DNA of 64,000 bases, taken from positions 1 to 64,000 of IMG/VR virus record IMGVR_UViG_3300037180_000021; one strand, given 5' to 3'. Origin of the DNA: a virus. The notes beneath the pieces were generated by a model. The model was not told where the DNA came from. It did no database searches and saw only the letters and a program-made list of their open reading frames with translations. Positions within the stretch are counted from its first letter, which is position 1. Each line of letters starts with the position of its first letter. Of the stretch, positions 1,782 through 38,030 are shown piece after piece. The translations under genes were made by a program, and so were the position numbers.

Positions 1782-1963
1782 GAGGCATCCTCGTCGTTCT
1801 TTAGAGAGCGGTACCGCCTCCAGTGCGCAGCTTCCTCCTCAATGTCCTGCATCTCCGTCTCTGGATCGCGCGGGCCGCGCCGCCACATGACAACTAGTAC
1901 CGATACGTTGATCGCGAGCATCGCTGCGATGATGATGATGATTGTGTCTAAGGCTGTCACCAT
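1778..1963 (-). CDS. small single-pass membrane protein
   Basis: Internal start MVTALDTIIIIIAAMLAINVSVLVVMW chosen so that the overlap with the GcrA-like stop is only 7 nt. One hydrophobic helix. Confidence 0.4.
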   Translation of the reverse strand: MVTALDTIIIIIAAMLAINVSVLVVMWRRGPRDPETEMQDIEEEAAHWRRYRSLKNDEDAS

Positions 1964-2409
1964 TGTTTCCCCCTGGTATAAGATTTCGCCACATGAGCGG
2001 CACAGTATGGAAAGTGATCTACGGATCGACACCCACAGAAAAGAAAAGTGCCATGCTCATCTTTGCCGACGGGCCAGCGGCACTGGTTGAGATCCAGATC
2101 AACGATAGTTGCCGCCGGCCTCCGTTGGGTCATGGCGCGCGGCGTGTTCCACTGGAATGAGCTGTCGAGGACCCTGGTCTGGCGATCAGAGGGCGGCGGC
2201 GTCCTGCGCTGTGGCGGCTCGACCGTGTACGCCTCTCTGGTTTCAGGGTTCAGCCGTAGGCCGAGGCGGTGACACTTGCCACTGACCACATTGCGCGTGA
2301 CACTCACACCCAGCTCACCGGTCAAGATGCGCACAATTTCTCCACGCGTCTTACCTTCCGCATGCAACGCCTTGAGGCGTTCGATGACCTTCTCCGTCCA
2401 GTTAATCAT
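1957..2409 (-). CDS. gcrA: GcrA-like cell-cycle regulator homologue
   Basis: N-terminal WTEKVIERLKALHAEGKTRGEIVRILTGELGVSVTRNVVSGKCHRLGL and C-terminal CRWPVG...FCG...PYCAAHVAKSY match the two conserved GcrA segments. Confidence 0.8.
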   Translation of the reverse strand: MINWTEKVIERLKALHAEGKTRGEIVRILTGELGVSVTRNVVSGKCHRLGLRLNPETREAYTVEPPQRRTPPPSDRQTRVLDSSFQWNTPRAMTQRRPAATIVDLDLNQCRWPVGKDEHGTFLFCGCRSVDHFPYCAAHVAKSYTRGKQW

Positions 2410-5395: not shown

Positions 5396-5998
5396 CATGC
5401 TTATCCGGTTGCCACACACAGCTCTACATCTTGTGTTCACGGCACTCTCCGAAAAGTGGAGCGGTCGCCTCGGGTTGCACAAGGCTCGCACGGCGTGGAA
5501 GCCGCTCGTCCAATGGACCGGCCGCAGAAAGGAATTGCTTGAACGGGACGCCGCCGGGTTCGCGGTACTCCGCCCACGGCAATTTGCGCAGGACCGTCTC
5601 GTCTTGGGCGCGGAGGATTGCTGGACGCGCGGCATCGCGCCGCAGCGGGAAAATCCACCAATCCTTGACCGCCTCTTGTCGACCCTCAGACCATGACCCA
5701 TTGCCCGTAGGCGGCGGTCGCAGCCGATGCCATGTCGGAGCCCACCACCAATTACAGGCGCGGTAGAGCGCTCCTGTGTGGCCTCGCGAGGGATCAGAAT
5801 AGGGGGCCCCGGAATACGACGCGCGGTAGGTGTTGCAATGATGATCGCTCCGAAATTGTCCTGCCACGCAACGCCACGGCTGATCGGCCCGAGATAGTGG
5901 TTCTCAGTGAGCAGTCCAGCAACCGATTTGCACGTTGTCCAGGTCATCTACATCTAGTGGGTTTCAGATTTTATGTGTGCGGCAACCGGATAAGCATA
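5396..5998. mobile_element. non-autonomous (MITE-like) element sharing the ends of the IS at 30289..32541; no target-site duplication seen
   Basis: Left end CATGCTTATCCGGTTGCCACACACA. Reverse complement of the right end TATGCTTATCCGGTTGCCGCACACA. Flanks TAAGGCGT and AAAATTTC do not match. Confidence 0.6.
5424..5947 (-). pseudogene. frameshifted Mom/GNAT-like gene carried inside the MITE-like element
   Basis: Frame a: MTWTTCKSVAGLLTENHYLGPISRGVAWQDNFGAIIIATPTARRI. Frame b continues APYSDPSRGHTGALYRACNWWWAPTWH. The two frames meet at a GGGGCCCCC run near 5805-5815. The HYLG and GxxYxAxNW motifs recall Mom-like proteins (from memory). Confidence 0.35.
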
Positions 5999-7134: not shown

Positions 7135-8043
7135 TTAAGGCTTGATCGCAAGATGCAGCACTCCATCAAGATCGCAGCCGACGTTCCGCAGATTGTAGCG
7201 GTACGCCAACTCTTTCAGATAGAGCGGCAGATACTTGACGTTCACCGAATGGAATTGGCCAACAAAGACGCGCTTCACGATGGCCCAGAAACTCTCAATC
7301 GTGTTGGTATGCGTCGGGCCGAATTGTTCAGCGAACATGTCCCAATCGACATAGACAACGCTGTGGTTGATGACGCGGTGCGCCACGATGTTATTGAGCC
7401 GGTTGTAGCCGAGATATTCGTCCGTCGTCAGAACGGTGTGCGGCAGGTCAATAGTCTCGCGCGTGAAGGCTTCCATGTCGTCACCGGTCATTTCGTCATG
7501 GGCAACCATCTTCGTCTTGACGCGGCCGCCGCGCTCGACGGCGCCGACGATAGGCGTCTTGCTGGTCGCGCGACCGCGTGGCGACCGCGTGTCGTCATCG
7601 CGTCGGTTGCGCTTGCGGGGCTTCCCGCCGATGTACGCTTCGTCCATTTCGACCAGCCCGGACAGCAAGCGGCCGTCATCCTGCATCGCCCCGCGAATCC
7701 GGTGCATCATCGACCAGACGGTGGGACGCCTCATTTCCAGGTCGCGCGCCGCTTGCATCGCCGAAAGCCCCTTCTTGGCGTTCAGCATGAGCGTGATGAG
7801 CAGGAACCATCGTTGAAGATCGACGTGGCTGTTGTGGAAGATCGTGCCCACGGTCGCGCTAAACGATTTGCGGCACCCCCAGCATTGCCAGCGGTCGGCT
7901 TGGCCCTTTTCGGCGTGCCGTGCCGTGTTGGTCGAGCCGCACAGCGGGCACTCCGGGCCGTGCGGCCAGCGGACCTGTTCCAAGTGAGCGACCGCCGCCT
8001 CCTTTGTCGGGAAGCGGCGGTAGATTTCGATGAGGCTGGTCAT
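7135..8043 (-). CDS. IS1595-family DDE transposase
   Basis: N-terminal Zn-ribbon CPLCGSTNTARH...WQCWGCRKSF, then FHNSHVDLQRWFLLITLML and an ISXO2-like DDE region. Confidence 0.85.
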   Translation of the reverse strand: MTSLIEIYRRFPTKEAAVAHLEQVRWPHGPECPLCGSTNTARHAEKGQADRWQCWGCRKSFSATVGTIFHNSHVDLQRWFLLITLMLNAKKGLSAMQAARDLEMRRPTVWSMMHRIRGAMQDDGRLLSGLVEMDEAYIGGKPRKRNRRDDDTRSPRGRATSKTPIVGAVERGGRVKTKMVAHDEMTGDDMEAFTRETIDLPHTVLTTDEYLGYNRLNNIVAHRVINHSVVYVDWDMFAEQFGPTHTNTIESFWAIVKRVFVGQFHSVNVKYLPLYLKELAYRYNLRNVGCDLDGVLHLAIKP

Positions 8044-15933: not shown

Positions 15934-16776
15934 ATGGCTTCAACCCCAAAAATCACGATTGGTGCAATCAACATTGCAGCCGACCCACATCCGACCGGAA
16001 TTTATTGGCATCTTTTCCAAATGGTGGCCGAAAAAGCAATTCCGGTCTGGGGAAAAGATTGGGCCAAAATTACTGAACCGCAGGATCGTGACACCACTCC
16101 TCCCAGCTTTTTCGGACGCATACTTGTGTGGACGGAAATCGAAGACGGCAAGTGGCTCGATCAGGAAACCGACAAAGAGGCAACTCCTGATGAAAAGGAT
16201 AAAATCCAAATACCAGAGCATCTCCGTCCAAATTTTCGATCTTTCAATTTTGTTTTTCTGGAGAGCAAACATCTTCTTGTGTTGGAGTACATTAACGAGC
16301 TTGGTGAACACTTCGGATCAAAAAGAGCGCAGTATTTTTTTACCGAGCTTCTCAGCGAAGAATATTTGGGGCCGAATGAGCCGGATGTTTCAGTCACGGT
16401 GGTTCCTTCAAGGGAAGCACTCTCACGAATCTACGCCATGCGTCTTCGTAGACTCGAAATTTTTGTGGTGCGCCCCAACGCTGATGACTTAGCGAGGGAT
16501 CAAAAAAGGCTACTCGATAGGCTTATGAAGCAAGGCGCGAAAAGTCAGAACCTAGAACTGAAGAAAAGAGCGAAAGTCCCAACAATCATTCCAGATGATG
16601 AAACACAAACACTTGCGCAAATTGCGGCAGCGGGCAACGGGCATGTGACAGGTGAAGGAACAGACGCAGATGGCAAACCCACTACCGAATCCACAAAAGA
16701 TCATCCAAAAACTGTCACGGCTGAGGTCGAGGTTAGCTCTATTGGCGCTTTATTCAACGCACTCAGGCGCTTTTGA
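15934..16776 (+). CDS. IS cargo protein 1, unknown function (280 aa, AT-rich)
   Basis: Long ORF in an AT-rich segment. No family recognised with confidence. Confidence 0.55.
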   Translation: MASTPKITIGAINIAADPHPTGIYWHLFQMVAEKAIPVWGKDWAKITEPQDRDTTPPSFFGRILVWTEIEDGKWLDQETDKEATPDEKDKIQIPEHLRPNFRSFNFVFLESKHLLVLEYINELGEHFGSKRAQYFFTELLSEEYLGPNEPDVSVTVVPSREALSRIYAMRLRRLEIFVVRPNADDLARDQKRLLDRLMKQGAKSQNLELKKRAKVPTIIPDDETQTLAQIAAAGNGHVTGEGTDADGKPTTESTKDHPKTVTAEVEVSSIGALFNALRRF

Positions 16777-18365: not shown

Positions 18366-18896
18366 ATGCCCGGAGGAAGACCGACAGCGTATGATCCAGA
18401 GTGCATCAAGATCGTCAAGGCGATGGCGAAGCTAGGGGCTACTAACGCGGACCTTGCTTCTGAGTTTGAAGTTAGTCACGCGACTATTGATAATTGGATG
18501 ATAAAACATCCTGAGTTTTTAGGCGCCTTAAAAGAAGGTAAGGAAGCTTTTGACCAACGTATAGAGCGTTCTTTAGCTCAAAAAGCGATTGGTTATGAAC
18601 GCCCAGTGGTAAAGACTACGACATTTGAAAATGAAGATGGCGGCACGACCGTTTCAACAGTGGAATACGTAGAGCATGTCCCGCCTGACACAACGGCCTG
18701 TATCTTCTGGCTCAAAAACCGCAAGCCGAAAGAATGGCGGGACCGGCATGAATTTAGCGGGGACCCGGAAAATCCGCTCCAAATTGTCCATGCTGTCCAG
18801 CTTATCGTTACCGACTCTCGGGAAGACTGGGACAAAATTGCTGCCGATAGGGATCGCCTCTGTCTTCCTGCCCCTGAAGGAAGCGGCGAGGTATAA
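18366..18896 (+). CDS. terS: terminase small subunit
   Basis: GRPTAYDPECIKIVKAMAKLGATNADLASEFEVSHATIDNWMIKHPEFLGALKEGKEAF is the typical HTH-type TerS N-terminus. It sits directly upstream of terL. Confidence 0.8.
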   Translation: MPGGRPTAYDPECIKIVKAMAKLGATNADLASEFEVSHATIDNWMIKHPEFLGALKEGKEAFDQRIERSLAQKAIGYERPVVKTTTFENEDGGTTVSTVEYVEHVPPDTTACIFWLKNRKPKEWRDRHEFSGDPENPLQIVHAVQLIVTDSREDWDKIAADRDRLCLPAPEGSGEV

Positions 18897-20613
18897 GGGC
18901 GCACACGGCGGTCGCGGTAGCGGCAAGTCGCATTTCTTTGCCGAGCAGCTAATCATTCATTGTCTTGAGCATCCCGGCTTACGCGCCGTGTGCCTGCGTG
19001 AAGTTCAGCAGTCTTTGAAACAATCTTCCAAGCTTTTGCTCGAAGACAAGATTGTCTTGTTCAGGGTGGGAAACCAGTTCCGTGTGCTGGAGGATCGTAT
19101 AGAGACGCCCGGCGACGGTATCATTATCTTTCAGGGCATGCAGAATCACACGGCCGAGTCGATCAAGTCGCTGGAAGGTTACGACATCGCTTGGTTTGAC
19201 GAAGCGCATCGCGCTAGTAAATTCTCGTTAGGTCTTTTGCGCCCCACGCTTCGTAAGCAGCACTCGCAGTTGTGGTTCTCCTGGAACCCAAATAGTGATT
19301 CCGATCCAGTTGAAGAATTGCTGCGTGGTCCGGAGCGACCTAAAGACTCGATCGTCGTCGAGGCCAACTATTCCGATAACCCGTTGTTCCCCGACGTGCT
19401 CCGCGAGGAGATGGAGTACGACAAGCGCCGCGATCCTGACCGCTACGCCCATGTCTGGATGGGCAAGTACCAAGTGGCGAGTGAGGCAAGAGTATTTAGG
19501 AACTGGAGGATCGAGGAGTTTGAGACGCCGAGGGACGCCAGGTTCTACATGGGAGCTGACTGGGGGTTCGCGGTCGACCCTACAGTGCTTGTCCGCTGTT
19601 TCATCAGCGGTCGCACCTTATTTGTCGACTTTGAAGCTTGGAAGGTTGGCTGTGACATCGACCACACTCCGGCGTTGTTCGCCGGCGGCAGCAGCGAGTG
19701 GCAGAACCCGTACGGCTGGCAGGGCATCCCCGGCGCGCACGACTGGCCGATCATCGCGGACTCGTCTAACCCGCAGGCGATCAGCTACCTGAAGCGCTTC
19801 GGCTTCAACATTGAGCCGGCAATAAAAGGTGTAGGAAGCATTGAGGAAGGAATTACGTTTCTAAAAAGCTACGATATTGTCGTGCATCCTAGGTGCAAGC
19901 ATGTTGCTGATGAGCTGGCAACGTATAGCTACGAAACCGATAAGAAGACTGAAGAAGTCTTACCCAAGCTTGCGGATAAGAAGAATCACTGTGTGGCAGA
20001 AGGCACACTGGTGACTTGTGAGCGTGGCGATGTCCCTATCGAGCAGGTGACGACTAAGGACAGCGTGTTGACGCGTGGCGGTTACCGGCGTGTGTTGTTT
20101 GTTGGGCAGACTGACGTCCAGCGTGAGACGTTGTTGGTTCGCACGACCGCTGGATCTGTGCGCTGTACGCCGGACCACAAAATTTACACGAGTAGAGGGT
20201 TTACGCGGGCTGATGCACTAAGCGGCGAGCTTCGAAGGTTGATGATGTCGAGCGAATCTGCGTTGAGTGTGATAAACATTTCTGGCGGAACAAGTACACA
20301 CAGACACAAACTTGTTCACGGTCGTGTGCTAACCGTTACCGATGGCGGCATCGCCGAGCGGGTTTATGATTTGACTGTTGAGGGTGACCACGAGTTCTTT
20401 GCTGGTGGCGTGCTGGTTCATAATTGCATAGACTCGCTGCGCTACGCGGTGGAGAACGAGCGCCGCGCCACCTACGACAGCTCGCTTAGCTGGGTAGGAT
20501 ATCCCACGATCGAGGAGCGCAAGAAGACGGGAGAGCTGGAGGACCCGACCGTGCCGCCGCACTTCGTGCCGGGGCGACTGGCCCGCATCGACTGGAACGC
20601 AAGAGGACGTTGA
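18790..20613 (+). CDS. terL: terminase large subunit, interrupted by a mini-intein
   Basis: ARYKGAHGGRGSGKSHFFA (Walker A) and nuclease motif KKNH / CIDSLRYAVE split by the intein. The start is uncertain: ATG at 18790 or in-frame TTG at 18838. Confidence 0.85.
   Translation: MLSSLSLPTLGKTGTKLLPIGIASVFLPLKEAARYKGAHGGRGSGKSHFFAEQLIIHCLEHPGLRAVCLREVQQSLKQSSKLLLEDKIVLFRVGNQFRVLEDRIETPGDGIIIFQGMQNHTAESIKSLEGYDIAWFDEAHRASKFSLGLLRPTLRKQHSQLWFSWNPNSDSDPVEELLRGPERPKDSIVVEANYSDNPLFPDVLREEMEYDKRRDPDRYAHVWMGKYQVASEARVFRNWRIEEFETPRDARFYMGADWGFAVDPTVLVRCFISGRTLFVDFEAWKVGCDIDHTPALFAGGSSEWQNPYGWQGIPGAHDWPIIADSSNPQAISYLKRFGFNIEPAIKGVGSIEEGITFLKSYDIVVHPRCKHVADELATYSYETDKKTEEVLPKLADKKNHCVAEGTLVTCERGDVPIEQVTTKDSVLTRGGYRRVLFVGQTDVQRETLLVRTTAGSVRCTPDHKIYTSRGFTRADALSGELRRLMMSSESALSVINISGGTSTHRHKLVHGRVLTVTDGGIAERVYDLTVEGDHEFFAGGVLVHNCIDSLRYAVENERRATYDSSLSWVGYPTIEERKKTGELEDPTVPPHFVPGRLARIDWNARGR
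19990..20424 (+). other. mini-intein (145 aa, no endonuclease domain) in terL
   Basis: Begins CVAEGTLVTC (block A), has RCTPDHKIYT (block B), VYDLTVEGDHEFFA (block F), and ends GVLVHN followed by Cys+1. Confidence 0.8.
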
Positions 20614-25335: not shown

Positions 25336-25670
25336 CATGCTTATCCGGTTGCCACACATAAACGCTAACACCTACTAGCTGTAGAGGCACGAACAATGAG
25401 CAATAGCGGTGATCTTAGGATGCTTGGAGTATGTGACGGCTTCGCACATGCCATCGTGTACCTACGCCGAGAGATGGGTGCGGTCCGCTATCGTCCAATC
25501 AACCCGCGTCATGTGCGGCGCATTGCCGCCCGCGAGGCGAAGCTAAGACCGTTGCGTGAGATCGAAGCGTGGCTTGTAAAACAGCACACGAACACAAAGG
25601 CAGCTTATGAAAAGTCGAGAGAGCCGCGACCACAAGATGCAGTGCCGTGTGTCTAAACCGGATAAGCATA
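25336..25670. mobile_element. 335-bp MITE-like element with the same ends as the IS at 30289..32541
   Basis: Ends CATGCTTATCCGGTTGCCACACA and (reverse complement) TATGCTTATCCGGTTTAGACACA. Perfect 8-bp direct repeat GAATGAGG at 25328-25335 and 25671-25678. Confidence 0.85.
25396..25656 (+). CDS. 86-aa ORF filling the MITE-like element
   Basis: The only long ORF in the element. No family recognised. Confidence 0.35.
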   Translation: MSNSGDLRMLGVCDGFAHAIVYLRREMGAVRYRPINPRHVRRIAAREAKLRPLREIEAWLVKQHTNTKAAYEKSREPRPQDAVPCV

Positions 25671-27442: not shown

Positions 27443-27787
27443 TTGGCACGTACAGGACTACAGCGGCTTGATGCAATAATCCCCGCAATAGAACGCGGTG
27501 AGTCATTCGAAAAGCGCATTCCTGCGGCTGGCACATTAATCGACTACGCGGACCTCATGGCGGAAGCTATAGCGATGGCCAAAGATGCCCGTATGGCGGA
27601 AGCTATAGCGATGGCCCAAGATGCCCGTAGCCTAGAAACGGTCGGCCGCAACGGCCGCAAGGTAATGTCAGTTGAAGAATTAAAGGCCGCTCATTGTATG
27701 AACGTGGCTCGCATCTCATATCTTGCCGCTAAAGAGCGGTTGGCGCATGGGAACCAAAGAAGGCGCACGAGAGGAAAATTTGCTTAA
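27443..27787 (+). CDS. hypothetical protein containing a 12-codon tandem duplication
   Basis: TTG start in the ORF track. Internal repeat MAEAIAMAKDAR / MAEAIAMAQDAR. Confidence 0.4.
   Translation: MARTGLQRLDAIIPAIERGESFEKRIPAAGTLIDYADLMAEAIAMAKDARMAEAIAMAQDARSLETVGRNGRKVMSVEELKAAHCMNVARISYLAAKERLAHGNQRRRTRGKFA
27557..27628 (+). repeat. 2 x 36-nt tandem duplication (35/36 identical)
   Basis: ATGGCGGAAGCTATAGCGATGGCCAAAGATGCCCGT is followed by the same unit with a single A-to-C change. Confidence 0.9.
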
Positions 27788-27939: not shown

Positions 27940-28134
27940 ATGGCCCCTAGCGAAGTTGCAAACGAGCTGATGATGATGGCCGCAGGGCGATCCGTCCAAA
28001 CCCAATTTGGCTGGTCGCATCCTGATTGCGAAGTTCTAATGGAGGCCGCGCGACTTATCCGCTGTGAGCCCGAAAAGATTGATGTTCCGCCAGAAGCCGT
28101 TGCATGCTGGGCAATGGGCTGGCGTGGTCCATGA
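27940..28134 (+). CDS. hypothetical protein
   Basis: Start MAPSEVANELMMMAAG chosen within the ORF-track entry 27898..28134. Confidence 0.4.
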   Translation: MAPSEVANELMMMAAGRSVQTQFGWSHPDCEVLMEAARLIRCEPEKIDVPPEAVACWAMGWRGP

Positions 28135-28154
28135 GCGCTGGCTCAGGAAACAAA

Positions 28155-28234
28155 GCCGAGTAGGAAGGATGCAAGCGGCACTCTCGTAATAGGGAGACCA
28201 GCCGCATGCCGGTGGAATTCCGGTTCAATTTTTC
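28155..28234 (+). ncRNA. unclassified structured-RNA-like module, copy 1 (short insert)
   Basis: 29-nt 5' module GCCGAGTAGGAAGGATGCAAGCGGCACTC, a 9-nt insert, then a 42-nt 3' module GGAGACCAGCCGCATGCCGGTGGAATTCCGGTTCAATTTTTC (hairpin plus T-run). Strand is inferred from the T-run only. Confidence 0.35.
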
Positions 28235-28380
28235 TAACGAGAGCTTTTGTGGCCGAAAAATTCCTCCTTGACAGAGATCACGCCCCCCGCTAAGAGACTG
28301 GCGCGATTCACTCCCACCGTGCTGCCACTGCCCGGCTCGCGCATCTGCGACCAAAGGCGAACTGGCGAAAGCCGAAGCGA

Positions 28381-28506
28381 GCCGAGTAGGAAGGATGCGA
28401 GCGGCACTCACAGGTAAAGCGCGACGGGGATCAAAAATTGTCCCTCCGCCGCGTGACGCCTTAAGGAGACCAGCCGCATGCCGGTGGAATTCCGGTTCAA
28501 TTTTTC
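28381..28506 (+). ncRNA. unclassified structured-RNA-like module, copy 2 (55-nt hairpin insert)
   Basis: Same 5' module (28/29) and an identical 42-nt 3' module. The insert can fold (GGGGA/TCCC and GCGCG/CGCG arms). Confidence 0.35.
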
Positions 28507-28750
28507 GAACGTGCGGAATAGACGTTTCCAAAGACCGGCTGCTACTCACGGGTGCCGGCGGTTCAATCGGTTGCCATACATCGACGTGGGGACCTGACCA
28601 TGTTTCAATTTCTCATTGACTCCGCGTTCGCCGGTATCTGGGCGGAAGTTTGGACGCTCGGAGGTTAGCGTTTTCTGGCGTCACGTATCCGCCGGGCGCA
28701 CGCAACGGCCGAACTGAAAAGCAACGCCGCAGTAATCAGGAGAAATTTCT

Positions 28751-28834
28751 TCAGGGCGGTAGGATTTGAACCTACGACCCCCGGAGTCCGGGTCCCGGGT
28801 CCGGTACTCTACCAGCCGTCGCCGCTTGGCCCCG
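28751..28834 (-). tRNA. degenerate tRNA-Pro(CGG)-derived element (probable pseudo-tRNA)
   Basis: Minus strand: CGGGGCC-AA-GCGGCGACGGCTGGTAGAGTA-CCGGA-CCCGGGACCCGGAC-TCCGG-GGGTC-GTAGG-TTCAAAT-CCTAC-CGCCCTG-A. Canonical T-arm, Pro-type variable loop GGGTC and 6/7 acceptor pairs, but a 7-nt duplication in the anticodon loop and extra bases in the D-arm. Confidence 0.45.
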
Positions 28835-28999: not shown

Positions 29000-29143
29000 A
29001 TGACTGGCGCGCGGGCCAAGCGGCGAGCCATAATCGCGGCCGTCTTCTTCGCCGGCCTCATGCTCGGCGCGTTCCTGTCGGAGGTTCGGCAGGAGATAGC
29101 CCACCACATTCACAGGTCGGGAGATAGCGCATTTATCCCTTGA
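29000..29143 (+). CDS. small membrane protein (47 aa)
   Basis: MTGARAKRRAIIAAVFFAGLMLGAFLSEVRQEIAHHIH. The upstream part of ORF 28766..29143 overlaps the tRNA-like element and looks spurious. Confidence 0.4.
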   Translation: MTGARAKRRAIIAAVFFAGLMLGAFLSEVRQEIAHHIHRSGDSAFIP

Positions 29144-30288
29144 CAGCATTTACGGGTTGCGCGCATATGTTGGAGTCTTGGAAGCCCCTGCCCGGCCCGA
29201 TGCCCTATTGGGTCTGGCAGAAACGGCGAAACGAGATGCGGGTCACGGACCTGATTCGCAAGAGCGTCGTATTTATCGGCCATCGCGGCGTTGACGACAG
29301 CTTTTGTCCAGACGGCACGGGATTTTTTCTCGTCCTTCAGGCTTACGAAGCCTCATTCCCCTATATCGTCACCGCAAAACACGTGATCGATCAGGCGGCA
29401 GGCGAAGAGCGTTTGAACGACATCTTAATTCGAGTGAATACGACGGCCAGCGACGTCGACTATATTAAAACCAAGATAGCAAAATGGCATATGCATCCTG
29501 ACCATCTAGAAGAGGGTAAAAAGCGAAAATACATTGACGTTGCGGCGTATAGCGTCGTCAACTACCGCGACTGGGCTAAAAGCGATCTGCATAAGTATGA
29601 TTTCACTTTCACCATTGAGGAAGATGTCTGCACCGATGATATCATTAAGAAATACGCGATTGGGCTCGGGGATGAGGTGGTGATACCTGGGCTTTTTCTT
29701 TCACACATCGGCACCCAACAAAATATTCCGGTTGTGAGAACTGGAAACATTGCGGCCGATCGGGGCGAGCACATTCCTACAAGCTACGGTCCAATGGACG
29801 CCTACCTCGTGGAGATGCGTTCAGTTGGAGGGATCAGCGGGTCGCCTGTCCTCACTCAAATGGCTGTTCGGCCAGAATCCCTGCACCCCGGAACTGACAT
29901 CGAAACCACGCTAGAGAAATCCGAAAAAGCTCATTTTCTGTTGGGATTAGTGCACGGGCACTATACTATCACCGCGCAAGAGGAGTGGGTTTTCAAGACG
30001 AACCAGCATGTTGGCAACATCAATGCTGGTATTGCGGTTGTCGTTCCCTACTCCAAGATAATGGAAACGATATTGCAGTCATCAACCTTTGGTGAGGGCC
30101 AGGAAATGGCAAGGCAGTATAGCGAAGCTGTGAATTCCCGCTCGAAAACGGTAGCAGACAGTGCCAAGCCTACCTCCTCCTCTTCTTCAACTCCTTCGGA
30201 CGACGACGTCAATCCACGTCACCTAGAGGATTTCACACGTCTTGTAGACGTGGCAGCGCGAAAGCGACCACGAGGCGATCAAACATAG
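29140..30288 (+). CDS. trypsin-like (S1/Trypsin_2-type) serine protease homologue
   Basis: Candidate triad: His in IVTAKHVID, Asp in YIDVAAYSV, Ser in GGISGSPV. Ser-rich C-terminal tail. Start uncertain. Confidence 0.6.
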   Translation: MTAFTGCAHMLESWKPLPGPMPYWVWQKRRNEMRVTDLIRKSVVFIGHRGVDDSFCPDGTGFFLVLQAYEASFPYIVTAKHVIDQAAGEERLNDILIRVNTTASDVDYIKTKIAKWHMHPDHLEEGKKRKYIDVAAYSVVNYRDWAKSDLHKYDFTFTIEEDVCTDDIIKKYAIGLGDEVVIPGLFLSHIGTQQNIPVVRTGNIAADRGEHIPTSYGPMDAYLVEMRSVGGISGSPVLTQMAVRPESLHPGTDIETTLEKSEKAHFLLGLVHGHYTITAQEEWVFKTNQHVGNINAGIAVVVPYSKIMETILQSSTFGEGQEMARQYSEAVNSRSKTVADSAKPTSSSSSTPSDDDVNPRHLEDFTRLVDVAARKRPRGDQT

Positions 30289-30303
30289 CATGCTTATCCG
30301 GTT

Positions 30304-31371
30304 TCAACATGCAGGCTCTAGGGATTGACGGGTGCCATGACTGACATTCGGGTGCGTCCACTCGCCGCTATACAGCCCGTCATAGGTCGGGCTTTCCCCG
30401 TTTGCGCCGATGCCCAAGAGCGAGCGGAAGGCGTTGAACGGGTAGAAGCGGCGATTGAAACGGAAGGTAAATTCATTGAGGTAGGCTTGCAGGTGCTTAG
30501 GCTCGATGCGCCCGTGGTGAGTACCTTGCAGCCAAGCCTTGAGGTTGCTGAAAACAAGGTGAACGATAGGCAGGTATTCTTCGGCCACCTCGGGCTTGTT
30601 CGACTCGACAACCGGCATGTGGGCGTAGCCGCGATCAGCCAGCGAGTTGTAGCCGCCCCAAGCGTCGGTAACGACCATGTTGGACGTAGGATCGACCGCT
30701 GCCTCTACAAAGCCGCACAGGGACTTGGCGGTACGGTCGGGGACAATTTCCAGCCTGAGACGGCCAGCGTAGCGCCCGCCACGCCTTTCGGGCTTGTCGC
30801 CCTTCTTGGGCGGTCTGGTGCGAACCTCGACGGCGGCGACCACAAGCGTCTTTTGGTCGGCATGTGGGCCTTTGCCCTCCCCGCGCAGCACGCCGCCGAT
30901 ATAGGTTTCGTCGATTTCAATATGGTCCCGGCCCGAAATGCTGCCGCCGATCCGGTCGCGGTCTTGGCGCACCATACCGGCGCGAAGCTTGTGCAGGATG
31001 CCAAAGGCAGTTTCATACCGGGTCAAGCCAAGCTGGCGCTGGAATTGAACGGCAGACAGGCCGGGCGTCATGCTGGAAATGAGGTAAGCGCCCCAAAACC
31101 AAGTCGTCAGCGGTGTATGGGTGCGCTCCATGACCGTGCCGACCGTCAGAGAGGTTTGCTTACGGCACTTCCGACACGCCAGCACAAGCGGGCGTTTGGC
31201 AATGCGTACAGGCTCGCCACGGGCTTTGCAGTGCGGGCATTGGAAGCCGTCAGGCCATTTTGCGCCTTCCAGATAGCGACCGCAGGCCGCGTCGTCCGGG
31301 AACAGTTTTTGGAACTGCGGCAGGGACTTGGGGAAGGGCAGGTGTTCCCATTTGTGAATGTCGTGGGTCAT
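30304..31371 (-). CDS. IS1595-family DDE transposase
   Basis: Start MTHDIHKWEHLPFPKSL. Zn-ribbon FQCPHCKARGEP...LACRKCRKQTS, then THTPLTTWFWGAYLI, YETAFGILHKLR and a DDE region. Confidence 0.85.
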   Translation of the reverse strand: MTHDIHKWEHLPFPKSLPQFQKLFPDDAACGRYLEGAKWPDGFQCPHCKARGEPVRIAKRPLVLACRKCRKQTSLTVGTVMERTHTPLTTWFWGAYLISSMTPGLSAVQFQRQLGLTRYETAFGILHKLRAGMVRQDRDRIGGSISGRDHIEIDETYIGGVLRGEGKGPHADQKTLVVAAVEVRTRPPKKGDKPERRGGRYAGRLRLEIVPDRTAKSLCGFVEAAVDPTSNMVVTDAWGGYNSLADRGYAHMPVVESNKPEVAEEYLPIVHLVFSNLKAWLQGTHHGRIEPKHLQAYLNEFTFRFNRRFYPFNAFRSLLGIGANGESPTYDGLYSGEWTHPNVSHGTRQSLEPAC

Positions 31372-31375
31372 GTGG

Positions 31376-31627
31376 CTAGTAGAATTTCCGTTCAAGATAA
31401 ATCTCCCCGTCGAAGTGATCAAAGGGACAACACTCAAGCTCTTTGTCGGTCGTCTCCGGGTCAACAAGACCATCGCAAGCCCATACACCATGGCCCTCAT
31501 ATTCGAGCGTGCCGCCGCATACAGGGCATTTCTTCGGAACAAATCGTCCGTTGTTATCTCTCGGTGATAGGGGCGTCAGGGATTTAGGGAAAGGCAGTTT
31601 TTCCCAGTTGTGAATGTCGTGGATCAT
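31376..31627 (-). CDS. small Zn-ribbon protein sharing its first 16 residues with the transposase
   Basis: MIHDIHNWEKLPFPKSL... then CPVCGGTLEYEGHGVWACDG. Confidence 0.5.
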   Translation of the reverse strand: MIHDIHNWEKLPFPKSLTPLSPRDNNGRFVPKKCPVCGGTLEYEGHGVWACDGLVDPETTDKELECCPFDHFDGEIYLERKFY

Positions 31628-31639
31628 AAAATGCGCCTC

Positions 31640-31888
31640 TTATTTATGGTCAATGCGTTCAATCTCAGCGACGATCAAAGCGCCAGCGCGGACAAGGTTG
31701 CGGCGGCGTCCTTTTGGTTTCCACCAACTTGCATCCCACGGCCATTGAGCCAGCTTAATGCCAAGCGCGTAGCAACCTGCTGCGCGTGCCAATTCCCCGT
31801 CAATGTGTTTGGCGTCATGTTCGGGCGTCCACCCCTCGCCTTCAATCTGGCGCTTGCGTTCGGCAGCAATTTCATCAATCGCGCTCAT
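31640..31888 (-). CDS. conserved small phage protein (EGWTxEHD motif)
   Basis: ERKRQIEGEGWTPEHDAKHIDGELARAAGCYA...WPW...RRRNLVRAGALIVAEIERID. I recognise this pattern from many phage genomes, but its function is unknown to me. Confidence 0.5.
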   Translation of the reverse strand: MSAIDEIAAERKRQIEGEGWTPEHDAKHIDGELARAAGCYALGIKLAQWPWDASWWKPKGRRRNLVRAGALIVAEIERIDHK

Positions 31889-31891
31889 GGC

Positions 31892-32209
31892 TTAGGCCCT
31901 AATCATATCGGCTTTAGAAATTTTCAGACCTTGGTGCCGGGCGATTGCTACCCCGCGCTCTTGGGCGGCCTGACGACTTGTATAGCCGTGGTCGGCATAT
32001 CCATTTACCACCACCCCATAAAGCGTTTGCCCCGTCGATTGTGGAAGTTCCACGATCTGAATTTTGGCGGTAGCCGGGTTGGTTGGAACAGAGTTAACGC
32101 CGACTTGATGTGAGGCTCCGGCACCTATCCGTTTGGCAAAGCCCCGCGCGGCCTCCTTAGTGAAAACTCCGCCCCGGCTTTCGCTTCCGTGTCCTTTTGC
32201 GTCTTTCAT
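31892..32209 (-). CDS. hypothetical protein (IS cargo)
   Basis: 105-aa ORF. Confidence 0.45.
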   Translation of the reverse strand: MKDAKGHGSESRGGVFTKEAARGFAKRIGAGASHQVGVNSVPTNPATAKIQIVELPQSTGQTLYGVVVNGYADHGYTSRQAAQERGVAIARHQGLKISKADMIRA

Positions 32210-32339
32210 GGAACTCTCCTGTTATTTCGTCTGTTAGAACTGTAAACGCGCCGATGACTACCAGCGCGATTATGATGCCGACCCCCCAAACTAGGCCGCG
32301 CGGGAGCAGAGTATTTCCAACCCAAATTAGATCGCCCAT
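32157..32339 (-). CDS. small membrane protein (IS cargo)
   Basis: MGDLIWVGNTLLPRGLVWGVGIIIALVVIGAFTVL. Overlaps the next ORF by 53 nt, so its extent is uncertain. Confidence 0.3.
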   Translation of the reverse strand: MGDLIWVGNTLLPRGLVWGVGIIIALVVIGAFTVLTDEITGEFHERRKRTRKRKPGRSFH

Positions 32340-32741
32340 TGGCCACGCTCCTATTTTAGAAAGCGTGTGTTGTACCGAAACGAGCAATCGGCCTCTATCG
32401 GCATGATGTAAGTCCCGACGCTCATCAGCCAGCGCCCGATATAAAATCTCAGTCGTTTCACGGTCGCTCCCTTTATTGGCCCGTTTTGGCCTATGCCCTT
32501 ATCTAGCACAGGTGGGTGCATGTGTCAAGCGGATAAGCATAAAACATAGGGAATTCCGCTATCCGACCTTCCGAATGATTTGGTCAGTCTCGGCGATCTT
32601 GAACGTGTTGGCATCAATCTGATTGACGTGCGACCCGTCGTCTAAGAGCAAAAATTGCCGCGGGCCGCCGGGCCGCATTGGTTGGATATATTTCCTGAAA
32701 CTGCTTAAAGGTGTGTTTGGCCATGACCATGACCCCTATTT

Positions 32742-33291: not shown

Positions 33292-35397
33292 ATGATGGGT
33301 AAGCTGACGCTGTTCCGCGACAACCTCGTCAACTTCGTGACGGGCCTCGGCACGTGGAAGGACCCGTCAGCAAGCCTGCGCTACAATTTGAATTTGGTCC
33401 AACGTGACCAGCTGGAGAACGCCTACCGCAGCGACTGGATCTCCAGGCGGCTGGTTGACGCGCCGGCCGACGACGCCGCCCGAGAGTGGCGCCAGTGGCA
33501 CGCGTCCCAGGACCAGATCGAGGTCATCGAGGACGTCGAGCGCGAGCACAACATCCAGAAGAAGCTGCGGCTGGCGCTGATCCGCGCCAGGCTGTACGGC
33601 GGCGCCGGCATGGTGCTGGGGGTGGACGATGGTAAGCCTGCGGAGGAACCACTGGACATCGACGCCGTCGGCAAGGACGCGCTCAAGTTCGTGGTGGTGA
33701 TGAACCGCTACGAGCTGGCCGCGGGACCTCGCATCTACAACGTCGAGTCGCCGTGGTACACCTACCCAGAATACTTCACGGTGCAGTCGCCGCTGTTCGG
33801 CTTCTACGGAGAGAAGGGGAACAGTCAGCCCGAGAGCTGGCAGGGGCAGGCCGGCGATCCTGCGCGGCAGGAGACGCCGCAGTCAGGCATGGTGCGCATC
33901 CACCCCAGCCGCGTGGTGCAGTTCGCCGGTGCCGAGCTGCCTGACTGGCGGCTGGTGCCGCTGGGCGGCCTGTGGGGTGATAGCATCTTACAGGCGGTTG
34001 AGGACATCCTGAAGAAGTTCGGCATGACCGTCGGCGGCCTGGCCGCCATGGTCAACGATGCCAAGATGGACGTGGTCAAGATACCAGAGTTCAGCAAGAA
34101 GATCTCCACGGCCGAGTACGCCAACCAGCTGATCGGACGCTTCAGCGCTGCCAACCAGGCCAAGTCTGTCATCAACACGCTGGTCCTCGACACCAACGAG
34201 GAGTGGGAGCGGGTGCAGACCAACTTCGGCGGCGTGCCGCAGGTGTTGGAGAAATTCATGACGCTGGCCTGCGCGTCCGCCGGCGTGCCGTTCTCACGGG
34301 TGTTCGGCCAGCAGAGTCGCGGCCTCGGCGGCAACGAGCACAGCGGTGCCAGCAGCGACGTCAAGAACTACTACGATATGATCGCTGCGGACCAGAAGAA
34401 TGTCTACACCCCGGCGCTGGACACGCTCGACCAGGTGCTGCTGCGCTCCGCGCTAGGCAAGTTCGACCCCAACGTCTACTACGAGTGGAACCCTCTGTCG
34501 CAGCCCGACCCCAAGGAGATCGCGGCCATCAGCTTGCAGAAGGCCCAGGCCACGCAGGTCTATATGACGGGTGGCTTGATCAACGAGGACGCACTGCGCG
34601 CCGCCGTAGTCAACCAGCTGATCGAGGACGGCGTCTATCCTGGGCTGGAAGACGCCATCGACGAGTTCGGCGAGGAGCCGGATGAGCCCGACGGCAGCTT
34701 CGACCCGCAGTCTGGTGCCCCCATCCCCGGCTCACCGGTCCAGGCAGCGATGGAACAGATGAAGGCGAGCGGCAACGGGGGCGACAAGCAGGTCGGTGAC
34801 GCCAAGGAGCCGACGCGGCGGCCGTCGCTGATGCGAAAGCGCACGTATCGTGACTTCAGGAAGATGAGGGATAGCGCGGAGTACTTCGACCGCCTGTCAC
34901 TTCTATCTGTTCGAGATGCTATCCCGCGCACGCTGTACGTGCGGCGTGACGTGCTAAACGGCGACGACATTGTGAAGTGGGCCAAGGCGCAGGGTTTCTC
35001 CACCACACTCCCAGCGGCAGCTATGCACGTCACCATCGCGTTCTCAAAGACGCTGGTTGATTGGATGAAGATGGGCAACGACTATACCGGGGACGACAGG
35101 GGTCGATTCACCGTGCCGCCCGGCGGAGTACGGCTGCTGGAGCGGCTAGGCGACGCCGTGGTCCTCATGTTCTCTTCGTCGCAACTGGCCTACCGCCACG
35201 AGGGCATGAAGAAAGAAGGTGCTAGCTGGGACCATCCTGAGTACCAGCCGCACATCACGGTCAGCTGGGATGTGCCCGAGGATTTTGATCTAGATGCTGT
35301 CGAGCCATACCGTGGGCCGATAAAGCTGGGGCCAGAGATATTCGAGCCGGTGAAGGAAGACTGGAAGTCGACCATCCACGAGGACGCAGCAGAGTGA
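33292..35397 (+). CDS. portal protein (DUF1073-type) fused to a C-terminal 2H-phosphoesterase-like domain
   Basis: The N-terminal ~470 aa resemble DUF1073 portals (FVTGLGTWKDPSAS...SDWISRRLVDAPADDA...). The C-terminal ~155 aa carry two HxT motifs, AAMHVTIAFS (H579) and QPHITVSW (H654). Confidence 0.75.
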   Translation: MMGKLTLFRDNLVNFVTGLGTWKDPSASLRYNLNLVQRDQLENAYRSDWISRRLVDAPADDAAREWRQWHASQDQIEVIEDVEREHNIQKKLRLALIRARLYGGAGMVLGVDDGKPAEEPLDIDAVGKDALKFVVVMNRYELAAGPRIYNVESPWYTYPEYFTVQSPLFGFYGEKGNSQPESWQGQAGDPARQETPQSGMVRIHPSRVVQFAGAELPDWRLVPLGGLWGDSILQAVEDILKKFGMTVGGLAAMVNDAKMDVVKIPEFSKKISTAEYANQLIGRFSAANQAKSVINTLVLDTNEEWERVQTNFGGVPQVLEKFMTLACASAGVPFSRVFGQQSRGLGGNEHSGASSDVKNYYDMIAADQKNVYTPALDTLDQVLLRSALGKFDPNVYYEWNPLSQPDPKEIAAISLQKAQATQVYMTGGLINEDALRAAVVNQLIEDGVYPGLEDAIDEFGEEPDEPDGSFDPQSGAPIPGSPVQAAMEQMKASGNGGDKQVGDAKEPTRRPSLMRKRTYRDFRKMRDSAEYFDRLSLLSVRDAIPRTLYVRRDVLNGDDIVKWAKAQGFSTTLPAAAMHVTIAFSKTLVDWMKMGNDYTGDDRGRFTVPPGGVRLLERLGDAVVLMFSSSQLAYRHEGMKKEGASWDHPEYQPHITVSWDVPEDFDLDAVEPYRGPIKLGPEIFEPVKEDWKSTIHEDAAE

Positions 35398-35807: not shown

Positions 35808-35977
35808 TGACCGAAGACCCCACTCCGAAGAAGCCCGGCAACATTGCCAAGCCGGACTCCCGGCCGCCGCCGACCCAGGGCGGCATCACGCCGACCACCA
35901 ACGTCGGGGCCAAGCGCGTGCAGATCAAGCCGACGCCCGCGGCGCACGAGCCTCCGAAGCCGGAGGATAAGCCGTGA
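35804..35977 (+). CDS. small Pro/Lys-rich protein (57 aa)
   Basis: My translation: MMTEDPTPKKPGNIAKPDSRPPPTQGGITPTTNVGAKRVQIKPTPAAHEPPKPEDKP. ATGA overlap upstream and GTGA overlap downstream. Confidence 0.35.
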   Translation: MMTEDPTPKKPGNIAKPDSRPPPTQGGITPTTNVGAKRVQIKPTPAAHEPPKPEDKP

Positions 35978-36141
35978 GGGAGCAGCAGACGCAGCAGCTC
36001 GCCTACGAGAAGTTCTGGCCGTCGGCGCGTATCCCCACCGGCACGGTGGGCCAGTTAGACGTGCGCTCTGGCCTGGTGTGGCCGTCTGGCGACTCGCGCT
36101 CGCCGTTCGCCACCTCCTCCGGTTACGTGGTGCAGAGCTGA
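35974..36141 (+). CDS. small hypothetical protein (55 aa, GTG start)
   Basis: VREQQTQQLAYEKFWPSARIPTGTVGQLDVRSGLVWPSGDSRSPFATSSGYVVQS. TGATG overlap with the next gene. Confidence 0.3.
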   Translation: MREQQTQQLAYEKFWPSARIPTGTVGQLDVRSGLVWPSGDSRSPFATSSGYVVQS

Positions 36142-38030
36142 TGCTGCTGGGAACTAACCGGAAGCCGTTCTATGACCAGCGCAAGGTTCTCGTAGAGGAC
36201 GCGCGCCCGCGCCCGTACGACCCCACCGGCACCGGCCCGCTGCGCGGCAAGTTCCGCAACGACCTTGATCGCCGCTGGGCCAAGCTGCGGCAGCTCGCCG
36301 TTAGCGCCTTGACCGACCACGGCATGGCCGACCCCACGGTGCAGTCGATCACTCACGCTATGCAGCTGGCGCAGACCGACAAGGTGCCGATGTTCACGCG
36401 GTGGATGGAGGAAGCAACTCGCCAGGTGATGACCAACGAGGACCGCTTCGTCAACATGTACATTTGGCGCGCGGGGGAGGCCGCTGATCCGCAACTGCCG
36501 ACTAACAGTCGCGCCGCCAATGTCATGTCCGACCTCGCTTGCGCTGAGCTTAAAGGCATCTGCGCTGCGGTAGTGCAGCAAGCCACCAGAGTCGTGGCCA
36601 ACGGGCTGCTGGCCAATAAGAAGCCGGCGCGGATCGCGCGCGACGTGGCGGCGATGATCAAGGCGGTCGGCGTTAGTCGCGGTCGTGCCCTAGCCAACTT
36701 CATGGTGGTGAAGGCTTACAATTGTGCGCTGCTGGACATGTTCCGCCGGCAGGGCGTCACGCACGTCGGAGTGATGGCGGAGAGAATTAGAGTTAAGCGC
36801 GGGGCGCACGGGCTGACGCGGGATGCCGACGTCGATCTCTCCACCGTCGAGGTGCTCACGGCTGGCGACGATGACGTCTGCCCTACTTGTGAGGAGATCA
36901 GCAATGATGGCCCCTACGCGCTGGACGACGCCGAGGGGCTGATCCCTGCGCACCTGAATTGTGTTTTACCAGGGGCTATTGTTGAAGGACAGGTTTTGGC
37001 GTCTCTAAAATCCTGGTATTCTGGTCCAGCTATTGAGATTAGTACGAGAGGTGGGAAAAGACTTAGCGTCACTGGTCAACACCCCGTACTGACATCGCTC
37101 GGGCCTGTTGTGGCTCAAGATATTTGCGAGGGAATGAAGCTTCTTTGCAAGAGTGAGGATTTTAGGGGTAGCTCCGTTGGTTTTAATGATTACTACAGTC
37201 CACCTCTTATTGAGGAGATATTTGATGCGCTTAGGGTTCAGGGATGCTGCCTTGTCCCCCCAAGCAGTGATGATCTCCACGGCGATGCGAGGCTTATCAA
37301 TGGTGATGTCGACATTGTAGCGGTAGATTGGCGTTTGTTGCGTTACATCCAGTTTCAGTTCGCAAAGCGCGGCAGCAAGCTCATTCTCCCATTTACCAAC
37401 ATGGGACATGTGGAACTGCTTAGACTTGCTGCGGTGAAGCAGCTCCTTTCTCGACGCTTTGCGTCCTTTGGCAGCTTTCCAAGCTCCGGAGCACTGACGT
37501 CGGACCGCCCTGCGACCTTTTTTCTTGATCAGCCCCCATTTAAGATACTCAGCTTCGGAAGCGGATCTCAGTTTGATACCCCCTTTCATGAAACATTTGC
37601 CAAGTACCCCTCGTCCTATTCCAGTTTGATCCGAAAGGTTTTTCATAGAAGTTCCGGCCAAGTAACCATTGATAAGTTGACGAAGCTGTCCTCTCTTAAA
37701 AATAATCTTGGGTCGTCCGGGATTTCTAAGTACGTCCTTGAGCAGGCTGTAAATTTCTCTTCGAGGTATGCCCAGTTTTTTAGTGATCTTATGACCCGAC
37801 AACCCTTGTTGATAGAGATGGATGATGTCGTTTCGGTCCGCAGCTTTAACTATGTGGGACATGTTTATGACCTCCAGACGTCTGTTGGATACATGATAGC
37901 ACAAAAAATCCTTTTGTGTAACTGCCGCTGTGCGTTCGTGCCGGCTGAGGACTTGCGGTTCGCTCCGGTGCGCGACGCCTTCGACCCGGACGAGCCGCGT
38001 GATGAGCATGGGGAGGAGAGTGATGAATAA
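36141..38030 (+). CDS. head morphogenesis protein (Mu F / SPP1 gp7 family), interrupted by an intein
   Basis: Hallmark C-terminal motif GDDDVCPTCEEISNDGPY...IPAHLN / CRCAFVP is split by 321 codons. Start MLLGTNRKPFYDQRK chosen. Confidence 0.75.
   Translation: MLLGTNRKPFYDQRKVLVEDARPRPYDPTGTGPLRGKFRNDLDRRWAKLRQLAVSALTDHGMADPTVQSITHAMQLAQTDKVPMFTRWMEEATRQVMTNEDRFVNMYIWRAGEAADPQLPTNSRAANVMSDLACAELKGICAAVVQQATRVVANGLLANKKPARIARDVAAMIKAVGVSRGRALANFMVVKAYNCALLDMFRRQGVTHVGVMAERIRVKRGAHGLTRDADVDLSTVEVLTAGDDDVCPTCEEISNDGPYALDDAEGLIPAHLNCVLPGAIVEGQVLASLKSWYSGPAIEISTRGGKRLSVTGQHPVLTSLGPVVAQDICEGMKLLCKSEDFRGSSVGFNDYYSPPLIEEIFDALRVQGCCLVPPSSDDLHGDARLINGDVDIVAVDWRLLRYIQFQFAKRGSKLILPFTNMGHVELLRLAAVKQLLSRRFASFGSFPSSGALTSDRPATFFLDQPPFKILSFGSGSQFDTPFHETFAKYPSSYSSLIRKVFHRSSGQVTIDKLTKLSSLKNNLGSSGISKYVLEQAVNFSSRYAQFFSDLMTRQPLLIEMDDVVSVRSFNYVGHVYDLQTSVGYMIAQKILLCNCRCAFVPAEDLRFAPVRDAFDPDEPRDEHGEESDE
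36960..37922 (+). other. intein (321 aa) in the Mu F-like gene
   Basis: Starts CVLPGAIVEG, has LSVTGQHPVLT (block B), VGHVYDLQTSVGYMIAQKILLCN (blocks F/G), then Cys+1 of CRC. No in-frame LAGLIDADG or HNH motif seen. Confidence 0.7.
37005..37862 (-). CDS. putative homing endonuclease (two HTH segments plus Vsr/DUF559-like PD-(D/E)XK) encoded antisense inside the intein
   Basis: MSHIVKAADRNDIIHLYQQGLSGHKITKKLGIPRREIY...YLAGTSMKNLSDQTGIGRGVL...GKWENELAAALCELKLDVTQQTPIYRYNVDITIDKPRIAVEIITAWGDK...WTVVIIKTNG. 285 aa with protein-like composition, in an AT-rich segment. Confidence 0.55.
   Translation of the reverse strand: MSHIVKAADRNDIIHLYQQGLSGHKITKKLGIPRREIYSLLKDVLRNPGRPKIIFKRGQLRQLINGYLAGTSMKNLSDQTGIGRGVLGKCFMKGGIKLRSASEAEYLKWGLIKKKGRRAVRRQCSGAWKAAKGRKASRKELLHRSKSKQFHMSHVGKWENELAAALCELKLDVTQQTPIYRYNVDITIDKPRIAVEIITAWGDKAASLNPKRIKYLLNKRWTVVIIKTNGATPKILTLAKKLHSLANILSHNRPERCQYGVLTSDAKSFPTSRTNLNSWTRIPGF

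Follow-up and report, generated by a model that had tools for sequence, protein, structure and literature searches.

The stretch of viral DNA analysed here, 64,000 nucleotides long (positions 1 to 64,000 of the IMG/VR record IMGVR_UViG_3300037180_000021) and referred to below as the window, is a phage genome encoding a family A DNA polymerase (PolA), a primase, an SNF2 helicase, a large terminase (18676-20613), and a portal protein (33292-35397). Between the terminase and the portal lies a 12.7-kb hypervariable island full of orphan small open reading frames (ORFs), which includes an 865-nt stretch without a confident gene. Within this island, we located two copies of a modular repeat on the plus strand, the first of which starts 20 nt past the stop codon of the last gene of an accessory operon. 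We consider, tentatively and at less than even confidence, that the two copies are paralogous small RNAs or operon-end RNA modules, self-contained and encoded on the plus strand. The features of the repeat are given below, with P0 to P3 denoting the predicted helices and SD a Shine-Dalgarno sequence.

27940..28134, plus strand: last gene of the plus-strand accessory operon, 64 aa, orphan.
28154..28239, plus strand: copy 1 (5' module, 9-nt centre, 3' module), ~86 nt.
28154..28183, plus strand: 5' module of copy 1, AGCCGAGTAGGAAGGATGCAAGCGGCACTC, with a purine-rich SD-like tract and the predicted 5' strands of P0, P1, and P2 (helices from RNAalifold).
28190..28239, plus strand: 3' module of copy 1, with an SD-like GGGAG (28192-28196), GCCGC as the predicted 3' strand of P1 (28201-28205), ATG (28206-28208), predicted P3 (28208-28224, GCCGG-TGGAATT-CCGGT), a U-run (28229-28233), and the predicted 3' strand of P0 (28228-28238).
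28240..28379, plus strand: unique spacer between the copies, 140 nt.
28380..28511, plus strand: copy 2 (5' module, 55-nt centre, 3' module), ~132 nt.
28380..28409, plus strand: 5' module of copy 2, with G at 28399.
28410..28461, plus strand: variable hairpin insert of copy 2 (52 nt), predicted to prolong P2; unique in the window and unrelated to the 9-nt centre of copy 1.
28462..28511, plus strand: 3' module of copy 2, with SD AGGAG (28464-28468), ATG (28478-28480), predicted P3 (28480-28496), and a U-run (28501-28505).

Repeat finding confirmed the two-copy modular architecture claimed in the original prediction, which had counted 28 of 29 matching positions in the 5' module and an identical 42-nt 3' module. 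The 5' modules (28154-28183 and 28380-28409) were identical at 29 of 30 positions, the sole mismatch being an A at 28173 in copy 1 and a G at 28399 in copy 2, and the 3' modules (28190-28239 and 28462-28511) at 48 of 50, with mismatches G/A at 28192/28464 and T/G at 28235/28507; the 42-nt stretch 28193-28234 inside the 3' module carried no mismatch between the copies. Module identity was 96% overall. The coordinates also bore out the lengths claimed for the centres, 9 nt in copy 1 (28184-28192) and 55 nt in copy 2 (28410-28464). When a 40-nt core and an 18-nt 5' core were counted in the window, each occurred twice, compared with 0.00 and 0.03 occurrences expected from shuffled sequences, respectively. 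In the two centres and in the 40-nt flanks on both sides, similarity between the copies was no better than chance. The pattern is a mosaic: two near-identical modules set in unrelated sequence. Since the copies fall in different frames of long overlapping ORFs (spacings of 226 and 272 nt), no protein explains the repeat. Mismatches numbered 3/80 in the modules and 4/9 in the centres (Fisher p = 0.0016, the MAFFT alignment of the centres being taken at face value), a contrast that suggests constraint or gene conversion on the modules and not a plain recent duplication. No third copy was found in the remainder of the ~74.6-kb phage genome rebuilt from public contigs, and covariance model R1, built on both copies, gave only 2 matches in 305 kb of window and related loci. 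A possible partial third 3' module at ~28553-28566 (GCCGGCGGTTCAAT) was not significant and was equalled in 57 of 500 shuffles.

The minimum-free-energy structure predicted for copy 1 agreed with the consensus that RNAalifold derived from the two copies, each being a closed three-helix fold. The closing helix P0 would pair positions 28160-28170 with 28228-28238, bringing the purine tract GUAGGAAGGAU together with the U-rich tail AUUUUUCKAAC, and it coincides with the limits of sequence conservation. Because P0 is rich in G-U pairs, it exists only on the plus strand. P1 is formed by GCGGC (28175-28179) and GCCGC (28201-28205), the pairing between modules that the original prediction had considered possible. 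P2 joins CUCUC with GGGAG in copy 1 and CUC with GAG in copy 2, where the insert prolongs the helix; its tip is a 6-nt loop in copy 1 and the 52-nt hairpin in copy 2, so that both unrelated centres continue P2 in the predicted fold. P3 (GCCGG-UGGAAUU-CCGGU) has a 5-bp stem and a 7-nt loop and is followed by UCAAUUUUU. The fold of copy 1 was predicted at -31 kcal/mol, with z = -2.04 on the plus strand vs -0.38 on the minus strand; together, the G-U pairs and the U-run favour the plus strand for this copy. That the 55-nt centre of copy 2 can fold on itself, as had been proposed, was upheld: the 52-nt insert alone gave a hairpin of -20.9 kcal/mol with z = -2.49, equalled by 4 of 200 shuffles. The A/G difference in the 5' module had been thought to keep a pair with U. 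Pairing with U28207 is indeed feasible, although it requires P1 to be lengthened by three pairs, in competition with the first two pairs of P3.

The position of the repeat fits an RNA element at the end of an operon, as copy 1 lies where such an end would be expected. The sequence CCGG-TGGAATT-CCGG followed by TTCAATTTTT, noted earlier, was found in both copies, and a consensus scan classed both as terminator-like sites on the plus strand (5 bp with 4 GC pairs, a 7-nt loop, and the tail TCAATTTTTC), the site lying 75-100 nt past the last stop codon of the operon. For transcription, termination, RNA stability, and any trans-acting role of the modules, we infer the following. Copy 1 would form the 3' untranslated part of the operon transcript, and copy 2 would be reached by polymerases that read through or start at a weak promoter in the spacer. 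P3 and the U-run would then stop or attenuate transcription ahead of a minus-strand tRNA-like remnant and genes linked to an insertion sequence (IS). The closed fold would leave a stable small RNA of ~85 nt from copy 1 and of 130-200 nt from copy 2, and these RNAs might also act in trans. The candidate spacer promoter, present before copy 2 only, was found by eye and is a weak one of alphaproteobacterial type (CTTGAC at 28267-28272, 17 nt, CTAAGA at 28290-28295); it was not reported by a sigma-70 consensus scan.

Several observations weigh against this RNA reading. Copy 2, at -47.4 kcal/mol, reached only z = -0.17 on the plus strand, and in a 386-nt context it takes a different fold. Compensatory changes were found at 0 of 22 predicted pairs in a comparison of only two near-identical sequences; no relatives were found, and the contigs carrying the region are all identical. 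The plus-strand three-helix fold is plausible as a prediction but only marginally better than that of shuffled sequence. The P3 hairpin has only 5 bp (-7.1 kcal/mol), and the U5 run starts 4 nt past the stem; terminator-like hits of such quality numbered 30, compared with 19.4 +/- 5.2 in shuffles (~1.5-fold), so the hairpin and U-run make a weak terminator. Neither the sigma-70 consensus scan nor reading of the sequence revealed a conserved promoter upstream of the modules, and no trans target in the phage paired better with them than with shuffled queries. Exact 20-mer, 17-mer, and 15-mer scans of viral contigs gave zero or chance matches only. Finally, the 3' module contains a well-formed ribosome-binding site (RBS) and ATG, which are covered more directly by a rival model discussed below. 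The original prediction of a conserved RNA fold with a variable stem thus holds for the mosaic conservation and for the self-complementary centre at the helix tip, but the z-scores are marginal and compensatory changes are zero.

Relatives of the repeat were sought more widely. An exact 20-mer of the 3' module gave four chance matches in a genome set (one per species, 185,579 species) and metagenome sets; these negatives are weak, as an exact match was required and the JGI contigs of the phage itself were not returned. Blastn, a check that had been suggested, gave no match when run on the INPHARED phage and PLSDB plasmid records. In viral contigs with a related portal (L020-L031, 53-63% identity), the genes in common with this phage are structural ones only, and the module was not found there by BLAST or with covariance model R1. 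More than 20 public contigs carry the region, all 100% identical, and many public assemblies break within the repeat; a variant of 98.6% identity (L015) begins inside copy 2 and shows no differences there. So far, the element is known from a single clonal phage genome and belongs to no catalogued family.

Such a restricted distribution, together with the absence of covariation and the marginal fold statistics, would also be expected if the repeat had arisen by segmental duplication in a hypervariable island that tolerates junk and had no function, its fold, RBS, and hairpin being incidental. The island is rich in orphan ORFs, contains an IS1595 element and derivatives resembling miniature inverted-repeat transposable elements (MITEs), and includes the 865-nt stretch mentioned above, and the 96% identity of the modules is compatible with a recent event. 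However, a simple tandem event should have copied the spacer too, and the spacer is not repeated 3' of copy 2, where the flank is unrelated to it. In addition, the unrelated centres would demand a second replacement placed precisely at the helix tip, and the inserted centre is self-complementary. We regard this duplication as unlikely, because mosaic conservation combined with unrelated, self-complementary centres at the helix tip points to constraint and argues against neutral duplication.

The modules could alternatively act as DNA, as paired protein-binding sites (operator, partition, replication, or recombination), with the quasi-palindrome CCGGTGGAATTCCGG and the SphI-like GCATGC as putative recognition elements. 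The copies are direct repeats ~250 bp apart in a non-coding stretch, and GGAATTCC occurs 4 times in the window, compared with 0.9 expected, two of these occurrences being in the modules. The conserved units (30 and 50 nt) nevertheless far exceed typical operator half-sites, the palindrome is imperfect, no gene for a DNA-binding protein was recognised nearby, and two features, the dependence of the closing helix on G-U pairs and the difference in folding between the strands, belong to the RNA level; sites of this kind are accordingly improbable. The palindrome GGAATTCC had also been proposed to mediate loop-loop dimerisation of the RNA. This proposal is weak, as only AAUU of it falls within the 7-nt loop of P3.

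The RBS within the 3' module deserves separate consideration. In each copy, GGGAG (copy 1) or AGGAG (copy 2) is followed, after 9 nt, by ATG (28206 and 28478, respectively), and strong RBSs elsewhere in the phage, such as those at 26741, 40218, and 50842, are spaced in the same way. Two candidate ORFs start here.

28206..28271, plus strand: candidate 21-codon ORF from the ATG of copy 1 (MPVEFRFNFSNESFCGRKIPP), read from the sequence.
28478..28597, plus strand: candidate 39-codon ORF from the ATG of copy 2, annotated by the gene caller in public contigs.

Their first 11 codons are common (MPVEFRFNFSN), after which they diverge completely. The statement that the region has no convincing ORF therefore has to be qualified: a canonical SD with its ATG is present and the 39-codon ORF was called as a gene, but that ORF is an orphan. 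In a search of 1.84 billion representative proteins, its 39-aa product matched itself and one low-complexity sequence, and when the modules were translated in six frames and used as a pseudo-protein query, none of 5.8 billion proteins matched. In the predicted fold, the SD is paired with CUCUC or CUC and the AUG with the 5' module. The computed cost of opening positions -16 to +5 was 15.2 kcal/mol for copy 1 and 11.8 kcal/mol for copy 2, compared with a median of 7.2 and a maximum of 14.9 kcal/mol in the 31 phage genes tested, so that copy 1 stands above all 31. An occluded RBS of this kind would fit a regulated start site or an untranslated structural RNA alike.

These features raise the possibility, the main rival to our reading but one that we find doubtful, that the modules control translation in cis as leaders or attenuators. 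In that case, the 3' module might supply the RBS, the start codon, and the first 11 codons of a small ORF, and the 5' module might provide the anti-SD (CUCUC/CUC) and anti-AUG (GCRAGCGGC) strands that block initiation. As P3 and the U-run lie within the ORF, ribosomes translating it would unfold P3 and could couple termination to translation; the pyrBI-type attenuator offers an analogy. Besides the RBS spacing, the gene call, and the opening costs, this model accommodates the three substitutions, all of which would be neutral: one lies in the leader, the G/A change retains GGAG, and the T/G mismatch is synonymous in the ORF frame (TCT/TCG). Against it, the ORFs are unrelated past codon 11 and neither resembles a membrane or known peptide, neither the 39-aa product nor the module pseudo-protein has a homologue in the protein sets named above, and no ORF of recognisable function lies 3' of either copy. 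There is also no coding signature, the nucleotides of the first 11 codons being no less conserved than the untranslated part, and the strong occlusion of the RBS is equally expected of an untranslated structural RNA. A 22-codon hydrophobic ORF (MFQFLIDSAFAGIWAEVWTLGG) was noticed at 28600-28668, 2 nt past the stop of the 39-codon ORF and preceded by GGGGA at a distance of 8 nt; either translational coupling or chance may account for it.

Mobile DNA is present in the phage, and its elements were examined together with the genes that surround the modules downstream. The features concerned are the following.

28754-28823, minus strand: tRNA-like remnant, Rfam tRNA score 18.9 bits vs a threshold of 29.
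29000-29143: membrane-type ORF, 47 aa.
29167-30288: trypsin-like protease, whose homologues carry PF13365.
30289-32541: IS1595-family element, 2253 bp, with the 8-bp target duplication AAACATAG.
25336-25670: MITE-like element, 335 bp, with the target duplication GAATGAGG.
5396-5998: 603-bp element, no target duplication.

The last three are edged by ~24-bp imperfect inverted repeats, [C/T]ATGCTTATCCGGTTGCCACACA. The 2253-bp element contains an IS1595-family transposase (30304-31371, minus strand) and 4-5 small passenger ORFs. As judged from the sequence, this phage genome of lytic type, in which no integrase was seen, harbours an active IS/MITE family. A second IS1595-family transposase of 302 aa, known from the gene calls of contigs L049-L051, lies at 7135-8043 on the minus strand in the replication region, where it separates the early genes of that strand from the DNA polymerase.

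With such elements at hand, the modules themselves might be a mobile or host-derived dispersed repeat of the MITE, REP, or RIME type, and the three inverted-repeat elements, two with 8-bp target duplications, show that the phage hosts mobile DNA. On reading the sequence, however, no terminal inverted repeats or target-site duplication were seen at the modules, and their similarity to the IS1595 inverted repeats of the phage was not significant. Only two copies are present in the phage, and the exact 20-mer found only chance matches in the genome and metagenome sets, a weak negative as stated above. This origin appears very improbable.

The protease, which had been listed as a neighbour, is convergent with the IS1595 transposase here and also in unrelated bacterial contigs (L016-L019), one of which has recA and gcvTHP next to the pair. 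These loci have the conserved motif ATTTATCCCTTGAC upstream in common, and the sequence shared by the protease unit starts near 29125, ~600 nt downstream of the modules. It looks as if the protease and the transposase travel together, or as if the 3' end of the protease gene is a preferred insertion site. Because the protease recurs with the transposase in unrelated contexts and the unit has its left boundary near 29125, it would be part of an IS1595-linked mobile unit whose position beside the modules is probably coincidental; a functional link between the modules and the protease was rejected as improbable.

The tRNA-like remnant, called a decayed tRNA-Pro in the original prediction, stayed below the tRNA threshold. 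Its T-arm is intact (GTAGGTTCAAATCCTAC), its D-arm and acceptor stem are damaged, and its anticodon region shows an apparent 7-nt duplication (GGACCCG); a phage tRNA has probably decayed here. The 5' edge of this remnant is joined with codons 5-9 of the 47-aa ORF by a 14-nt inverted repeat without mismatches (TCGCCGCTTGGCCC at 28819-28832 and GGGCCAAGCGGCGA at 29013-29026), which on a plus-strand transcript would form a long-range helix across the start region of that ORF. Upstream of the modules, a 114-aa ORF (27443-27787) contains an in-frame 36-nt tandem duplication (27557-27628, 35/36), through which the peptide MAEAIAMA[K/Q]DAR is repeated.

A GcrA-like protein (window ~1957-2409, minus strand) and, just outside the window, a DNA methylase are present in the public contigs. 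The CcrM methylation site GANTC occurs 94 times, compared with 241 expected from base composition, and this avoidance, together with GcrA, indicates an alphaproteobacterial host. No cultured phage is close: the closest sequenced phages reach at most ~40% identity in the portal and 42% in the polymerase, and several of the closest phage records place the terminase and portal within a single match region. The portal carries a C-terminal Acb1 domain (anti-CBASS, 2H-phosphoesterase; residues 546-693, E = 1e-39), so that an anti-defence enzyme would be fused to a virion structural protein. Intein_splicing/Hint signals in the large terminase (residues ~439-583) and a weak intein match in a head protein (35844-38030) suggest that packaging and head genes may carry inteins. 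The genome also encodes a DUF3800 protein (367-1524, minus strand) and a DUF4747 protein (15934-16776), families often linked to defence or counter-defence.

The element is real and lineage-restricted, and it probably belongs to the RNA level; we regard it as a candidate phage small RNA or cis-regulatory leader. There is a small chance that it stands for a class of phage RNA not described before, in which a closed unit of three helices imitates a translation-initiation region, here within an anti-defence or accessory island. At the same low level of confidence, the SD and AUG locked in a helix, the further GGA and SD-like tracts, and the Acb1 domain in the portal of this phage might belong to such a picture, and the RNA might conceivably capture an RNA-binding factor of the host or of a defence system, in the manner of a decoy or sponge, or act as an uncatalogued ribosome-coupled attenuator. 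If functional, the repeat would mean that the accessory island of this uncultured lineage of alphaproteobacterial phages also carries an element working at the RNA level; to our knowledge, the small RNAs and leader structures of alphaproteobacterial phages are barely catalogued. The tandem pair with its freely variable helix tip provides a convenient experimental handle. At present, the repeat is of value as a candidate for wet-lab or deeper metagenomic study and is not a discovery.

Comparison with known RNA families was carried out using Rfam 15 (4227 models), at the gathering score for the window and at E <= 10 for positions 28140-28520. No match was obtained at the gathering score anywhere in the window, so the check suggested earlier assigned the element to no family, and the relaxed search of the region returned only DUF805b (15.5 bits) and H19_3 (11.6 bits). 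The DUF805b RNA motif (RF02914) is similar in having a small hairpin with a GAAAGCCGAA-like loop followed by GAGUAGG. The match was rejected: its score lies far below the gathering score of 35.6 (E 0.088-0.26), it requires a 6-nt deletion, and at 28362-28392 it draws chiefly on the unique sequence 5' of copy 2, with no match in copy 1, so it is not a property of the module. A tRNA-like module was also discarded. ARAGORN found 0 genes at default settings and reported copy 1 only at -ps80, where the window yields 66 'tRNAs' and the output is noise, and the Rfam tRNA model did not match the modules.

Two functional types were likewise considered and set aside. A CsrA/RsmA sponge of the CsrB/RsmZ type was rejected, as only one of the 4-5 GGA motifs per copy falls in a predicted loop; no homologues of CsrA, Hfq, or ProQ were found in the six-frame translation of the phage, and CsrA is, as far as is known, generally absent from alphaproteobacteria. 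A type III toxin-antitoxin system of the ToxI type is recognised by abutting repeats of ~36 nt beside an endoribonuclease toxin gene. Here, the units measure 86 and 132 nt and lie 140 nt apart, and Pfam and PHROG scans of the neighbouring ORFs revealed no toxin family.

Among leaders that sequester the SD are the ROSE-type RNA thermometers of Bradyrhizobium and the ermC- and pyrBI-type leader-ORF attenuators. Like these, the modules hold the SD and AUG in predicted helices by means of an upstream complementary strand, and a short ORF overlaps a terminator-like hairpin; unlike these, they match no Rfam cis-regulatory family, including ROSE, have no downstream ORF of recognisable function, and start two ORFs that part after 11 codons. 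The RNase III sites of phage T7 early mRNA are irregular conserved stem-loops repeated intergenically in a polycistronic transcript, and their cleavage leaves a stabilising 3' hairpin. The modules differ from these sites in their short helices (P0, P1, and P2 amount to ~25 bp only if stacked, with P3 branching off) and in occurring as only two copies adjacent to one another, but they share the repetition of conserved, irregular stem-loops, here predicted ones, at intergenic positions of a phage.

Tandem paralogous small RNAs ending in terminators, which occur in bacteria and phages and include AbcR1/AbcR2 of Rhizobiales, were also compared with the repeat. The modules are unlike them in having no Rfam match, no recognisable promoter, a weak terminator, and no predicted targets above background, and in carrying a purine-rich, SD-like 5' tract instead of the usual pyrimidine-rich anti-SD seed. 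They are like them in size (~85-130 nt), in the placement of two near-identical copies side by side, and in the order of their parts, a single-stranded 5' tract being followed by one hairpin internally and another, with a U-run, at the 3' end.

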